A stretch of DNA of 62,205 nt, counting the filler, from a bacterium (lineage in GTDB: Bacteria > UBA9089 > CG2-30-40-21 > SBAY01), in the NCBI GenBank assembly GCA_040757115.1. It is 5 parts of 5 records of this genome, joined end to end, with 100 filler letters (N's around TTAATTAATTAA, not from the genome) between each part and the next. Parts side by side here need not be neighbours in the genome. Positions count along the whole stretch, not along the records: positions 15,470 to 46,885 come from JBFLYA010000018.1; 4 more parts are not named here. One strand, 5' to 3'. The notes beneath the pieces were generated by a model. It was not told where the DNA came from, searched no databases, and saw nothing but the letters and a program-made list of their open reading frames with translations. A program made the position numbers and the translations under genes. Below are positions 43,439-62,071 of the stretch, one piece after another (the stretch's first letter is position 1; each line of letters starts with the position of its first letter).

Positions 43439-44776
43439 TTACCTACTACCTGAATGGTTACCTCTAATCGTTATCTGTGAAGTAACAATTCCTTTTTCAA
43501 ATCCCAATTGATTTAGCAATTCAGTTTTAACGGGTAATATGCATTCATTCGCTGAGGGATTTAATTTAAACAACCAATCATACAAATTTTTGTATTTTTC
43601 CACTAATAGTTTTTGTTTTTTAATCTGGTCATGAAAGTATTTATTTGGCCAGAAACGTAAATCTCGTGGGACAAAAAGGATATGTGAATGTCCTAATTCA
43701 ACCAGTTCCACAAGTTTATGTGCCTCATGTTCAAATTGAACTACCTCTTGACTTTCTCCTCTCTCCGGGTCATCAACATTAGTCAGTCGAGGTTTTTTTA
43801 TCACGCGGAATGGCAAATCAAACATCTTTCTATCAATTGAGGTATGTAGCCAGCCCATATTGGTATTAAATTCTTCTATATTCAACAAATCATTATGGCT
43901 GTGTGGTGAAATTCGGGTAAGTTCTAAAATACCCGGTCCTGTTTGACCATCTGGTCGTTTCATCAGAACGCATTTTCCGCCTTTTTTGTCCTCTGCAGAT
44001 TGCCGGGCAGATTCAAACATTATTTGCACCTGTTGTGTTTCATTGAGCCAGGAAAAATATCCCGCGATAGTTAGGTCTATTTTTGCCTCAGAGTTATCCA
44101 CATTACAGATTAAAAGTATCTCTCCACCGTTATTAATAAATTCGTCATAAAGTCCACTTTTTTCAAACGCTTGATAGACATCGCCGTGTCCTTTAGTAAC
44201 GATACTTAATCTGCCGCTTTTGCGAGTAATTAATTCTGCGGTTTTGGGATTAATTCTTGGCCAACCCAAATCCTGGCAAAAATGTTTTGGTTTGACTTTC
44301 AGATTGAAATCATTAAATTTTTTAAGGTAGTCTTTTGTATCTTTATCTGTTGACGGACTATTCATAAAATATGTTGGTATGGGTAGTCCAGTTTGATAGA
44401 TAGAATAAAGTTTGATGGCAATAAAACTAATTGGTGTGAGCATAATTGCTTGAAATATACCTTTAGTTGGTCGATAGCCTAATTCTTTCTCATACGAAGT
44501 GGCAACACCACCGTTTAAGATTATCATCCCTAACTTACCATTTTCTGCCAGGTTAAATCCTCTTTGAGAAAAGTAATCTGGCATAAGCCCATTTTGTTGC
44601 TCAATTACAGATAACTCGTCATAAGAACTCATATATTTTGTTCCTTTTAATGAACAAATCTCACCATCATAAATTACTTCTAACTCATTTCGCAGGTATT
44701 TCTGGCGAATTTCACCAAATTTTTCTACATCCATTTCTGGATAATTTTTCTTTAACCAGTCTAAATTGTTATTCAT
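43439..44776 (-). CDS. UDP-sugar pyrophosphorylase, eukaryote-type UDPGP family
   Basis: ILNGGVATS, FMNS, FCQ, GHGDVY, NVDN, KKGG, FNTN; start set at MNNNL. Confidence 0.8.
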   Translation of the reverse strand: MNNNLDWLKKNYPEMDVEKFGEIRQKYLRNELEVIYDGEICSLKGTKYMSSYDELSVIEQQNGLMPDYFSQRGFNLAENGKLGMIILNGGVATSYEKELGYRPTKGIFQAIMLTPISFIAIKLYSIYQTGLPIPTYFMNSPSTDKDTKDYLKKFNDFNLKVKPKHFCQDLGWPRINPKTAELITRKSGRLSIVTKGHGDVYQAFEKSGLYDEFINNGGEILLICNVDNSEAKIDLTIAGYFSWLNETQQVQIMFESARQSAEDKKGGKCVLMKRPDGQTGPGILELTRISPHSHNDLLNIEEFNTNMGWLHTSIDRKMFDLPFRVIKKPRLTNVDDPERGESQEVVQFEHEAHKLVELVELGHSHILFVPRDLRFWPNKYFHDQIKKQKLLVEKYKNLYDWLFKLNPSANECILPVKTELLNQLGFEKGIVTSQITIRGNHSGSR

Positions 44777-45053
44777 AACCGTTCTCCTGAAAAATAGGAA
44801 GTAGAAAGTAGAGAGTAGAAAGTAGAGAGAAAATCTTTCCTCCACCTGTTTTTTCCTATTTCTCCTGAAAATGTGTGTAACTTGTTGTAATTATTAATGT
44901 TTTGTAATAGCGATAGGGAAGTAATACCGTCTCTTCTCTTAAAAACGCACAATATCCCCCTCCCGCCATCGTCTCAAAAACTATTTGTCTCTAAACTATC
45001 GCTCCCCTTCTATTAACAACCTATTATCCATAGATTTATACTATATATTCTAA

Positions 45054-45194
45054 ATATATGGTCAGCCAGCATAGCTATTAAAAATTTCTCCTGCGTGCTC
45101 TATGGCAACATTCCTTTGTTCTTATGTCTGGCTCGGTCAGTTTCTCCTTCGGGGTCTATACCACCAGTAACGCCCGACCTCTCTTACCATATAT
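45054..45194 (-). ncRNA. Candidate bridge/seek RNA with two guide loops
   Basis: 9-bp closing stem ATATATGGT/ACCATATAT; two covarying bulged hairpins with YATAGA loops, each followed by AGGAGAAA; G-U pairs favour the minus strand. Confidence 0.7.
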
Positions 45195-45209
45195 CCTTTT
45201 GTCTATATC

Positions 45210-46395
45210 CTATGCTACTTTCTTAAGAAAAACTACATCATAACCAAGATTGAGTAGTATCTTCCTGTAACTCCCTGCTATCTTCTTTCTCCTCTTCTCA
45301 TCAAGATAACTTATCCCAATCTCTTTATATCCTACTTTATTCTTCAAAATGTAATAACTCATTATCAATATCTTATGTCCTATCGCTACTAATGCTCGTT
45401 TCTTCCCCCGCCTACCTGCAAGACGGTGATACTTTGAATTTAAATAACTATCCTTCTTCTTTGACCCCGCCCAAGCACTTTCTGTTAATGTCACTTTTAA
45501 ACCTTTATTACCGTGAGTTGTCCCACAACTTTTTTTTTACCAGCACTCTCGTTATTCCCAGGACTCATTCCTGCCCACGAGGATAAATGTGCCTCTGTAG
45601 GAAATTTACTCATATCTACGCCTATCTCGGCTATTATGGAGGCGGCACTATCTCCTTTTACTCCAGGTATGGTCTGCAGTAATTCATACTCTTTCCTATA
45701 CTTATCTATCTTCTTGTCTATCTCCTCTTCTATTCTTTCTACTATCTCCTCTATCCCCCTAATATGTCTTAATGACTCCTTTATCATAAATTTATGATGC
45801 TCCTCAAATTTCCCAAATAACGCTTCTTTTATCACTTCTTTTTTCCCTTGTAGTCTCCCTCTGGCTAAATCGCTCATCTCCTCTATAGTTAATTTCCCCT
45901 TCATTAATTCCTCTATAATTTCACTCCCACTTACTCCAAATGTCTCTGTTACTACTGACGATAACTTTATATTCGCATCCTCTAATACCCTTTGTATCCT
46001 ATTCTTCTCCGCTGAAATAGATTGAACAAGCTTCCTCCTATACCTCGTCAAATCCCTTAACTCACGAATATCCCGCGGTGGGATAAAACTCCCTCTTACT
46101 AAACCATTCCTTAATAACTTACACAACCATTCAGCATCACAAACATCGGTCTTCCGACCAGGAACATACTTTATATGTCGTGCATTTACCAGTATAACCT
46201 CAAAATCCTCCTCTAATATGTTAAATACAGGCTTCCAATATACCCCTGTGCTTTCCATGGCTACATGAGTAACCCCCTTGCTCTTAAGCCATTCCCTTAA
46301 CTTCAGCAAATCGTTTGTAAATGTCCTGTAACTTCGCACCTCCTTCGCAATACCAATTCCATCAAACATGCAGTTAAACTTTCCTTGTGCACATC
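45210..46395 (-). pseudogene. IS110 DEDD recombinase, disrupted
   Basis: DVHKESLTACLM, MESTGVYWKP, RKTDVCDA, TIPGV, NNESAGK; 1-nt frameshift near 46359, -1 shift at the A9 run (45530-45538), N-terminus removed by IS66 insertion. Confidence 0.9.
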
Positions 46396-46885
46396 GTAAC
46401 TGCTCATCATCAAGTGGCAATCTGCACCTTACAGCTTCAACAGCCACATAATATCTAAAGAACCGTTTTTTATGGCGAAGGACCTCATGGATAACAAACT
46501 GCACTTCTTTGCCCGATCATCTCTGCTAAGGATGGCAGCCTGTATTCTCCAGAAAGTCTATCGTATAAATACTTACGAAAATTCACTCCAAGTTTTCGAC
46601 ATGTATCTTTAATTGACAAAAATATCTCCCAACTCCGTGTCCCTTCCTCACTTCTGGTCGGTATGATGATCTTGCGTTTTACAACATATTCCCTTACAGC
46701 TAATTCTGCTGGATTGTTGTGCAATGGCACTTCGGGATGATCTAAGACCACCAACAATCCTGATTTCCTTTCCATTGTTTTCGCTATGCATTCATCAAGT
46801 GTAACATATCCTGTTTTTACTGAAAAGAGTTTATCAAATGCCTCATTTAATCGTTTTTTCTCTTTCTCATCTGGATTGGATTTAT
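46396..46885 (-). mobile_element. IS66-family element right part (transposase C-terminus 46485-46885)
   Basis: FDKLFS..TGY..LD, HPEVPLHNNPAELAVR..KRK, TCRKLGVNF; terminal GTAACTGCTCA at 46396. Confidence 0.85.
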
Positions 46886-46985
46886 NNNNNNNNNNNNNNN
46901 NNNNNNNNNNNNNNNNNNNNNNNNNNNNNTTAATTAATTAANNNNNNNNNNNNNNNNNNNNNNNNNNNNNNNNNNNNNNNNNNNN
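46886..46985. other. Artificial contig linker
   Basis: N-run with TTAATTAATTAA. Confidence 0.97.
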
Positions 46986-47267
46986 CCCGAATAGTAAATT
47001 TCGTGTCTTCACACTATTTCTACTATCGGCAAAAGACCTTTCTTTATTTAGCTAATTCGTGCCAAAAACTTCTATCATATTGAGTCCTATCCAAAAACTT
47101 GAACATCGAGTTATAGAAATAGGTAGAAATTGATTGTGGAAAACAACAAATTTCCATAAATTTCTATTAGTTTCTATTAATTTCAATTTTTTTATAATAT
47201 CTCCCTATCTCCTTAATCTCCACATCTCCTTTTGTTACACCACCTGAACGCTTACCAATCTTTTTTA

Positions 47268-47296
47268 TTGACATTATATAAAATTTAGTGTATAAT
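47268..47296 (+). promoter_or_regulatory. Consensus sigma70 promoter
   Basis: TTGACA-17-TATAAT. Confidence 0.8.
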
Positions 47297-47304
47297 ATAT
47301 GAAC

Positions 47305-47348
47305 ACTGGGAGGAAGAATTATAATTTTTTCATACTCCCAGTTTTTTT
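47305..47348 (+). terminator. Terminator-like hairpin immediately after the promoter
   Basis: ACTGGGAG...CTCCCAGT with a T7 run. Confidence 0.55.
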
Positions 47349-47514
47349 ATTTAATTTGGTCTAACAAAAGGCTAAAGAAATTAGAGAAAAAAGTCGATAA
47401 ATAAAGAGAGAGGAGAAGGGAAGAATATTTCTCCATTTCCCCGCTTCTTTGTTTCTCTTTTCTATCTTTGCGTCTCTGCGGTGAAAAATAAAAACTTTTT
47501 ACAAGAGGGCTAAA

Positions 47515-59233: not shown

Positions 59234-59595
59234 AGGAGAAACGCTCATGCCCCTGCAGGGCACAAACGAAGATGAAAATGGGTTTGATGGTTTGATGGTT
59301 CAGGTGAAATCAGGCTGAAGCCTGCGGCTACCAGCCTTCTCGAGTCCCGAACCCCGAGTCCCGAGTCCCGAATTTAAGGGGGAATAAACTTGCTTTTCAT
59401 CGGTTCCTTGGTCTATGGTCTATGGTCTCTAGTCTATTTTCAGGAGAAACGGTCATGAACCGTGGGTTCACAAATGAGGATGAAAATAGTAGGTAGGAGA
59501 TAGAAGGTGGGAGGTAAGGAGATAGGCGTGAGGAGTGATGTTTTCTTTACTTTCTACTTTCTACTCTCTACTCTCTACTTCCTATTTTCAGGAGA
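59234..59595 (+). mobile_element. Tandem pair of AGGAGA-type MITEs in the RBS of nhaD
   Basis: AGGAGA at 59234, 59442 and 59590 delimit two units beginning AACG(C/G)TCATG and ending ATTTTC. Confidence 0.82.
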
Positions 59596-61084: not shown

Positions 61085-61583
61085 AGGAGAAACGCTCATG
61101 CCCCTGCAGGGCACAAATGACGATGAAAATAGGGAGGGAACACACCCCTACACCCCTCTCAAGAGGGGAATATAACAGTTATTAGTCAAAACTTTACTCA
61201 GAGTGGATAATAAAAAAATCCCAAATCTCAAGCACCAAATTCCACATACCAAAAAGCGAATTAGAGATTAGTGAATTAGAGATTAGATTTTACTAATTCG
61301 CTAATTCGCTTAATTCACTAATTCACTAATTGGAATTTGGAATTTGTGATTTGGAATTTCAGAGCCATATCTATGTCAAATTTTGATTAATAAGTGCTAT
61401 ACAACCCCCTACCCCCCTTTGTTAAGGGGGAATAAACTTATGGTCTGTGGTCTATTTTCCGGAGAAACGCTCATGCCCACAGGGAGTGGGCACAAAGGAG
61501 GATGAAAATCGGGCATAGAGATTAGAGATTAGCAAGAGTGCAGGTTCTAATTCTCTAATCTCTAATTAACTATTTTCAGGAGA
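61085..61583 (+). mobile_element. Tandem pair of AGGAGA-type MITEs in an RBS; first unit contains a nested TATAG MITE (61171-61401)
   Basis: (A)GGAGA at 61085, 61461 and 61578; ATG follows at 61589. Confidence 0.82.
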
Positions 61584-61588
61584 CCTTT

Positions 61589-62071
61589 ATGAAAAACCGA
61601 TTACTAAGATTTTTATTCATTGCAGTAGTTTTCCTAACATTATTCTCAATAGCAAGTAGTGTATATGGTTCTACCGAACCATATACACTACCAGCAACAG
61701 AAAAAGATTTACAGCTTCCATGGTGGGCATGGTCAATTATTTTACTCGTCTTCACATTTATACTTGGAATTCTGGCTGTACTTGGCGGCGTTGGAGGTGG
61801 TGTCTTGTTCGTCCCGCTTGTTGGAGGATTTTTCCCCTTTCATATTGACTTTGTCAGGGGCGCTGGTCTTATAGTAGCACTCTCTGGCACCCTTGCAGCA
61901 GGCCCTGGACTTCTCAAGAGAAATCTTGCAAGTCTGCGTCTTGCCCTTCCAGTAGCACTGATTGCATCAACAGTAGCAATAGTAGGCGCAATGATAGGGC
62001 TTGCCCTTCCTGCATATTTAGTCAATATCCTTCCCGGTACAACCATAATACTCGATGTTCAAATTTTTTAG
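61589..62071 (+). pseudogene. TSUP/TauE-family permease truncated by an element end at 62051
   Basis: GVGGGVLFVP, FVRGAGL; only 160 aa; CTCGATGTTCAA end also present inverted at 47099-47110. Confidence 0.72.

Follow-up and report, generated by a model that had tools for sequence, protein, structure and literature searches.

At the locus, the minus strand carries the gene of an IS110-family recombinase, and a structured RNA and the right end of the element follow on its 3' side. The window (the whole stretch of DNA that was analysed, 62,205 nucleotides) shows this gene split by an IS66-family element inserted in codon ~10; the first ~10 codons and the left end of the IS110 element are on contig C156. 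The recombinase gene is present in one copy in the assembly, and its two domains are recognised with E-values of 2.6e-26 (PF01548) and 2.3e-13 (PF02371). The features of the gene and of its interruption are as follows.

45210-46395, minus strand: IS110-family recombinase gene with the domains DEDD_Tnp_IS110 (PF01548) and Transposase_20 (PF02371)
45530-45538, minus strand: run of nine A (GGU AAA AAA AAA G) at which the frame moves by -1, conserved in relatives
46396-46480, minus strand: right end of IS66, the insertion by which the IS110 element is split; 8-bp duplication GATGTGCA

The IS66 element spans positions 46396-46885 of the window and C156:1-558, the contig break and the N gap being inside it, and its 85-bp end recurs on two other contigs. 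The missing part on C156 reads ...ATGGTAAAAAGAGGCTGTGGATTGGATGTGCA, followed by the other IS66 end and the 8-bp duplication GATGTGCA. The frame also changes once near 46360, near codon 20. Since it is split by IS66 and carries this early frame change, this copy of the element is unable to move by itself.

The run of nine A had also been regarded as damage, a view that we do not retain: GGY AAA AAA AAA G with a -1 continuation occurs at 24 of 160 homologous loci (the frame is continuous in 117), and this recurrence suggests a slippery site where slippage, ribosomal or transcriptional, is probably programmed. The damage consists of the IS66 insertion and the early frame change. Loci with the run include L004-6, L026, L033-35, L041, L058, L087, L090, L104 and L117, and also L121, L127, L128, L130, L143, L156 and others. 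None of the papers listed by a literature search on slippage concerns IS110.

The predicted bridge RNA begins on the minus strand 15 nt past the TAG stop codon (45210-45212) of the recombinase gene. Its parts are listed below.

45054-45194, minus strand: predicted bridge RNA, a three-way junction, from the fold, a covariance-model match at 45040-45187 and the energy of the closing helix
45174-45179, minus strand: 5' strand of P1 (GGUCGG), pairing with CUGACC at 45140-45135; basal helix of loop 1 (helix 2)
45150-45166, minus strand: inner hairpin 1, UGGUGG-UAUAGA-CCCCG (helix 3)
45123-45133, minus strand: 5' strand of P2, pairing with 45073-45064; basal helix of loop 2, a duplex found in 18 of 18 relatives
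45094-45110, minus strand: inner hairpin 2, UGUUGCC-AUAGA-GCACG, the best-conserved part (helices 6 and 7)

The minimum-energy fold consists of the closing helix and two branches, in agreement with the original prediction, whose two modules (45166-45141 and 45110-45085), two 7-mers (GGGCGTT and ACAAAGG) and closing helix GGAUAUAUGGU/ACCAUAUAUUU (45194-45186 with 45062-54) are all found where it placed them. The closing helix has a duplex energy of -12.3 kcal/mol in the window (z = -4.6 against 100 shuffles); it is strong in many relatives also, and weak in some relatives of the 3' type. The fold energy of the whole 176 nt is -39 kcal/mol (z = -2.04), a mild excess when considered alone, as 6 of 200 shuffles equal it, so that the support for the structure comes from covariation in relatives and not from the fold energy alone.

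Relatives of the recombinase (48-69% identical) were taken from genome and metagenome collections, and the RNA was first spotted beside their genes by means of a pattern describing hairpin 2. The same two-module sequence is found by this pattern next to many of these genes, downstream in loci of Bacteroidota type, upstream in loci of Bacillota, Actinomycetota and other types. Because the raw MAFFT alignment misplaced the 3' strand of P2, RNAalifold gave 12 pairs only, and it was replaced by a covariance model, R1, whose seed consists of 18 relatives; the structure was given by hand and the sequences were then re-aligned to the model. A search of 100 sources with R1 returned 44 matches, 29 of which are not in the seed, located 3' or 5' of homologous recombinase genes. 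The window is matched once, at 45040-45187 on the minus strand, with 119.6 bits (E 8e-22). In the assembly, R1 finds this single copy (150 of 3047 candidates were scored), and the hairpin-2 pattern has four matches, of which only that of the window is in the right context.

The covariation among homologs that had been put forward as a check is seen with this model. In an alignment of 42 distinct rows, which is fitted to the model and hence biased towards the structure, 81.4% of cells are paired, versus 67.6% in shuffles, and 22 of the 26 base pairs show compensatory changes on both sides; none of 500 shuffles reaches the observed values, and slid controls of the paired-cell test give 25-44%. 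The inner hairpins are the most regular (95.1% of cells paired in helix 3, with compensatory changes in 4 of its 5 pairs; 97-99% in helices 6 and 7), helix 2 reaching 79.5% (4 of 6 pairs compensatory). Independently of the model alignment, the P2 duplex that flanks hairpin 2 is formed in 18/18 relatives with unrelated sequences. The compensatory changes and the 44 matches, with 29 outside the seed, argue for a bridge (seek) RNA of an IS110-family element, as had been claimed, and so does the way the loop strands track ends and flanks. By these features the predicted RNA belongs to the known IS110/IS1111 bridge (seek) RNA class and is an expected part of such an element.

It is highly improbable that the conserved structure is something other than a guide RNA, such as a 3' untranslated region, a terminator or a DNA-level binding site of the recombinase. 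The lack of a family match in Rfam would agree with this (a cmscan of 44000-47500 with E up to 10 gave three chance-level matches and no bridge RNA), but the covariation tolerates G-U pairs on one strand, the loop strands follow each element's own flanks and ends, and in other relatives this fold is found on the 5' side of the gene. A scan of 44900-45600 for promoters and terminators gave no decisive signal.

The right end of the element lies about 350 nt from the stop codon and is directly followed by a miniature copy.

44910-45051, minus strand: 142 nt that separate the RNA from the right end, absent from one DNA contig of run X1
44861-44873, minus strand: right end of the element, CATTTTCAGGAGA, which includes the right sub-terminal repeat ATTTTCA
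44783-44860, minus strand: miniature copy without a left end; its right end is CTATTTTTCAGGAGA

Another candidate, TAGTTTTTGAGA near 44975, was considered as a decayed right end and is ruled out by the presence of CATTTTCAGGAGA at 44873-44861. The miniature copy is followed by ACGGTT-ATG of the next gene, which starts at 44776 and whose Shine-Dalgarno site is supplied by CTATTTTTCAGGAGA.

On C156, the upstream sequence consists of a flank ending in AGGAGGAGA, two miniature copies and the left end of the element, in which AACACTCATG is followed by a hairpin, by CACAAAGGAAG and then by ATGAAAAT. The element's own left junction thus reads CAGGGGA/AACACTCATG (the slash marks the junction). The original prediction supposed a left end resembling that of the miniature copies, AACGCTCATG, and took an unrelated left end as an argument against itself; the left end on C156, which starts with AACACTCATG, sides with it.

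The miniature copies are 120-170 nt long each and are found at 59240-59590, 61091-61583 and 44783-44860 in the window and on many contigs genome-wide. Their layout comprises a left end AACGSWCATG, a covarying hairpin, CACAAAnGnnGATGAAAAT, a long hairpin of variable sequence and a right end YTATTTTCAGGRGA. The genome contains at least 152 left ends and at least 293 right ends, often in mixed tandem arrays: 85 of the 152 left ends directly follow the right end of another copy, and, of 293 strict right ends, 90 have a left end after them. Many start codons have, 5-9 nt before them, an AGGAGA that comes from the right end. Among the 203 right flanks that are not part of an element, an ATG is found at +4 to +16 in 108, and the first base is A in 175. 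We also observed other repeat families directly after the right end ...TTTTCAGGRGA, namely AAGGAAGTTTCACGCCAAGCACGC (at least 12 sites) and ACCCTTCAGCCT (at least 7 sites), for instance on contigs C3, C47, C50 and C57; these two families may be further non-autonomous partners with other left ends.

The four strands of the two internal loops can be compared with these ends and flanks.

45167-45173, minus strand: 5' strand of loop 1, GCGUUAC (T5), preceded by GG of P1; predicted right-target guide, complementary to GTAACGC(CC)
45141-45149, minus strand: 3' strand of loop 1, AAGGAGAAA (T3); predicted left-target guide, in the sense of left flank plus core
45111-45122, minus strand: 5' strand of loop 2, AGAACAAAGGAA (D5); by sequence comparison, a same-sense copy of the left-end box CACAAAGGAAG
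45085-45093, minus strand: 3' strand of loop 2, CAGGAGAAA (D3); predicted donor guide, matching right end plus core
59234-59246, plus strand: AGGAGA/AACGCTC, left junction of a miniature copy that is specified by loop 1, from the sequence match; further copies at 61085 and about 61460

In the relatives whose junctions are readable, loop 1 has a 3' strand that corresponds to the left flank plus the core and a 5' strand that complements the core plus the right flank. The three copies L004-6 have the left junction TATGAAA/CCAACATG and the right end ...ACACATGAAAA in common, and their flanks differ; TATGAAA/CC on the left matches GUAUGAAA of loop 1 and ACATGAAA on the right matches ACAUGAAA of loop 2. 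In the closest relative, L085 (69% identical), the left junction ATTTGAAA/CATTCATG matches AUUUGAAA of loop 1, the right junction CAGGGGAAA/TGTTTC matches CAGGGGAAA of loop 2, and the 5' strand of loop 1, ACAUUAC, is complementary to GAAATGT at the right junction. Considering 40 distinct elements, D3 matches the expected right-end region at 8/9 or more in 35, directly after ATTTTC or TTTAC in most contexts shown, and T3 followed by the ATG of the left end is found in 21. As for T5, its mean fit to the element's own right flank is 0.737, versus 0.622 for cross pairs, and none of 2000 permutations is as high (23 junction rows, some of which are tandem junctions that lower the score). From the junction matches in L004-6, in L085 and in these 40 elements, loop 1 is very probably the target loop and loop 2 the donor loop.

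The window conforms to the same rule for the right end: D3, CAGGAGAAAU, is identical to the right junction CAGGAGAAAT at 44870-44861, and the right end is matched by loop 2 over 9-10 nt. As originally proposed, both loops have the AGGAGA(AA) arm in common. The roles assigned to the loops by the original prediction were the reverse of ours: loop 1 would be the donor loop, reading right end plus left end (AGGAGA + AACGCTC), and loop 2 the target loop, in which ACAAAGG would guide the right flank. GGGCGUU does pair 7/7 (wobble allowed) with 72 of the 152 left ends genome-wide, and 6/7 with the element's own AACACTC; the flank at 61584-61590 also fits ACAAAGG 6/7, the sequence AGGAGA-CCTTTAT being located at 61578-61590 as claimed. 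We consider this assignment very unlikely. In L004-6 and L085, the 3' strand of loop 1 corresponds to the left flank and that of loop 2 to the right end, and in the relatives both target guides are found in loop 1. The covariation of 7-mer guides with flanks, proposed as a check, holds for T5 only: the 7-mers of the ACAAAGG type have none, as 710 of 2000 permutations are as good. Moreover, ACAAAGG fits one of the 203 non-element right flanks at 6/7 or better, which is precisely the one at 61584-61590, versus a mean of 1.89 for random 7-mers, and the ACAAAGG region is conserved clade by clade and copies a box of the left end.

This box is located between the left-end hairpin and the left repeat ATGAAAAT, and it corresponds to the last nine bases of D5, in the same sense. 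The window's own left end matches D5 over 9/9 of these bases. For 21 relatives the match averages 7.19 of 9 and is at least 7 in 15 of them; for cross pairs the average is 5.75, and 16% are at 7 or more. Relatedness inflates such figures. None of the antisense matches in these 21 relatives reaches 7 of 9. There are five different versions of the box, and each goes together with its own version of the D5 strand. In loop 2, no sequence was found that consistently complements the very start of the left end. GAAUGUU, which overlaps hairpin 2, was tried as a left-end guide: it matches 7/7 in L085 and 6/7 in the window, and fails by eye in many of 14 relatives.

With loop 1 taken as the target loop, its two strands in the window jointly specify AAGGAGAAA/CGCCC. 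The match between this loop and the junction of the miniature copies, a central claim of the original prediction, is far beyond chance: besides the 72 left ends paired by GGGCGUU, GGAGAAACGCYC is present at 44 sites of the 4.3-Mb assembly, versus 0.31 expected, and all 44 are left junctions of miniature copies. Among the three AGGAGA-AACGCTC sites listed originally, those at 59234 and 61085 are confirmed, and the third (61461) reads CGGAGA. We therefore favour, with a probability of about 0.8, the reading in which the RNA is a bridge (seek) RNA whose loop 1 binds the target and loop 2 the donor, loop 1 of the window being aimed at the junctions of kin copies.

Not all the junctions fit. At the element's own left junction, the left half of the site matches 7/9, and the element's own right flank, AATAGGA, does not fit the right-target guide of loop 1, so that the neighbour's left end must be supposed to have been lost later; miniature units truncated at their 5' side, like that at 44783-44860, recur elsewhere. 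Moreover, unrelated flanks come after 203 of the 293 right ends, and no more than 11 of these flanks pair with GGGCGUU at 6/7 or better, which leaves first insertions at new sites unexplained by this guide. Since most right flanks do not fit the right-target guide, it may be that the left half (GGAGA) is enough for first insertions.

The same misfit could be taken to mean that the 3' strand of loop 1 is a target guide and that its 5' strand has been re-tuned here to the left ends of donor copies, as an extended handshake or an aid to excision that acts at the left junction, and has no part in the choice of the site. In IS621, a short handshake across the loops pairs with non-cognate DNA (PMC11208158), and excision substrates are reported to bind across both loops (PMC13626964). 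This proposal is nonetheless unlikely, because the handshake guides that are known measure 2 nt and are on the core's other side (PMC11208158), and because the same strand fits the right flanks in relatives.

In the reading that we favour, namely a target loop aimed at kin junctions, the events could be the following. The RNA would be expressed from the region on the 3' side of the recombinase gene, and the recombinase would bind it; it would fold with a closing helix holding two modules, each made of a stem, an internal loop and a hairpin. Since T3 has the sense of the left target plus core, AAGGAGAAA would base-pair with this sequence's bottom strand, and (GG)GCGUUAC would pair with the core plus the right target, the two strands specifying AAGGAGAAA-CGCCC. 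The site so specified would be a Shine-Dalgarno-like AGGAGA, or the right end of another copy, joined to the miniature left end AACGCTC. D3, CAGGAGAAA, is identical to the right end plus core, and D5 repeats, in the same sense, the box inside the left end. Because loop 1 specifies the junction of a kin copy, new copies would land just upstream of resident ones, and mixed tandem arrays would be built in this way.

More tentatively, and with less than even confidence, we propose that the target loop has been retuned to the kin boundary AGGAGA/AACGCYC, so that the element and the miniature copies devoid of guide home to each other and accumulate in mixed tandem arrays immediately before start codons, the right ends restoring the Shine-Dalgarno sequence. 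By the same tentative proposal, a single recombinase might have rewritten the translation starts of at least 100 genes without silencing them, its Bacteroidota relatives possibly doing likewise at ATGAAA. It would also imply, just as speculatively, that the clade recognises its donor through a same-sense box of the left end, behind a hairpin, a mode undescribed for IS621. If homing to kin junctions is true, a target AGGAGAAACGCTC should be preferred over AGGAGAATTATAT, while recognition of the left half should lead to equal use of the two.

Several relatives of Bacteroidota type (L004-6, L033, L026, L042, L087, L070 and L127) carry guides that read nnATGAAA. Each is placed exactly on a start codon; the gene concerned frequently encodes a signal peptide, and ATGAAA is re-created by the right end of the element. 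In L033, three copies of the whole element are arranged head to tail.

Among known systems, the element resembles the IS1111 group (ISEc11, ISKpn4, ISPa11; Siddiquee et al. 2024, PMC11187229; Durrant et al. 2024, PMC11208160) in that the RNA is in a long non-coding end 3' of the DEDD recombinase gene, and in having sub-terminal inverted repeats, here of 7 bp (TGAAAAT/ATTTTCA). In IS1111-type seekRNAs, the complement of the top strand is reported to lie 5' of the match to the bottom strand (PMC11187229), which is the order of T5 and T3 here. The element differs from this group in that the left repeat is ~37 nt from the end, behind a conserved hairpin, and not 6-7 nt from it: IS1111 elements have repeats of 7-17 bp and extend past them by about 7 nt at the left terminus and 3 nt at the right one, whereas the extensions found here are about 37 and 5-6 nt. 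Moreover, the RNA is 5' of the gene in close relatives that share the ends of the window's element.

With IS621, of the IS110 group (PMC11208160, PMC11208158), the RNA shares two internal loops, target first and donor second, in which each loop has one strand per DNA strand and the guides cover the core. The RNA of IS621-like elements is upstream of the gene, whereas that of the window is 3' of it. In the same texts, the 5' strand of each loop of IS621-like RNAs pairs with the bottom strand, while here it is the 3' strand that would do so; the strand roles are thus mirrored, and the mirrored order is that reported for IS1111-type seekRNAs (PMC11187229). Another difference is that D5 copies a sub-terminal box of the left end in the same sense, instead of being the complement of the start of the left end. 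The RNA is of a known class, with some unusual features which can be tested.

When L004, L085 and the window are set against L022, L046, L052, L072, L078, L101, L107, L007, L061 and L010, the left-end hairpin, the box and the ATGAAAAT/ATTTTC repeats prove to be shared, with the RNA either 5' or 3' of the gene, which suggests that the RNA module has moved within one clade whose ends did not change.

Elements of the IS900/IS901/IS902 group, of the IS110 family, insert between the ribosome-binding site and the start codon. We know of no arrays of miniature copies in this group, nor of any regeneration of the site by the right end. The hed frame is described as lacking its own ribosome-binding site and start codon (PMC8141618). 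As regards miniature copies, the text on MITEPpu9/ISPpu9 of Pseudomonas putida (PMC12288879) describes a short non-autonomous element with the ends of an IS110-family element, which is sometimes in tandem and beside its parent element. MITEPpu9 has eight copies according to this text, versus at least 152 left ends and 293 right ends here; in addition, the arrays described here are mixed and directly upstream of start codons, and the target loop of the bridge RNA matches their left junction. A non-exhaustive search of the literature, partly through incomplete texts, found no miniature derivatives in such numbers, and none whose junction is matched by a target loop.

Bridge RNAs are being developed as programmable recombination tools, for which the natural variety in the reading of DNA is useful. 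In the clade considered here, the two-loop RNA is compact and well conserved, and there are many natural junctions with which its four strands can be compared. A target loop pointing at the junction of its own element would be a natural case that could explain the arrays of miniature copies, and the 5' strand of the donor loop, which mirrors a sub-terminal box of the left end, is another feature of the clade. For genome biology, the element would be an example of RNA-guided insertion exactly at the signals for the start of translation, with restoration of these signals.

Two further observations concern the RNA and the miniature copies. A 396-nt DNA contig of run X1 has a right-end-like sequence, ...CGATTTTCAGGA, joined to position 45264; it continues through the RNA and skips 45051-44910. 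It differs from the window at 45104 and 45127, two unpaired positions of the RNA, and its depth figure is 1274, versus about 300-323 beside it (about four times). It may be that this contig represents extra modules that carry only the RNA, and hence further RNA copies, a reading for which the depth is only a hint since contig depth is a weak measure.

Inside the miniature copies (59490-59585, and 44850-44795 on the minus strand) there are long hairpins, with a purine-rich arm facing a pyrimidine-rich one. G-T pairs are numerous in them and confined to one strand, a hint that the structure forms at the level of RNA.
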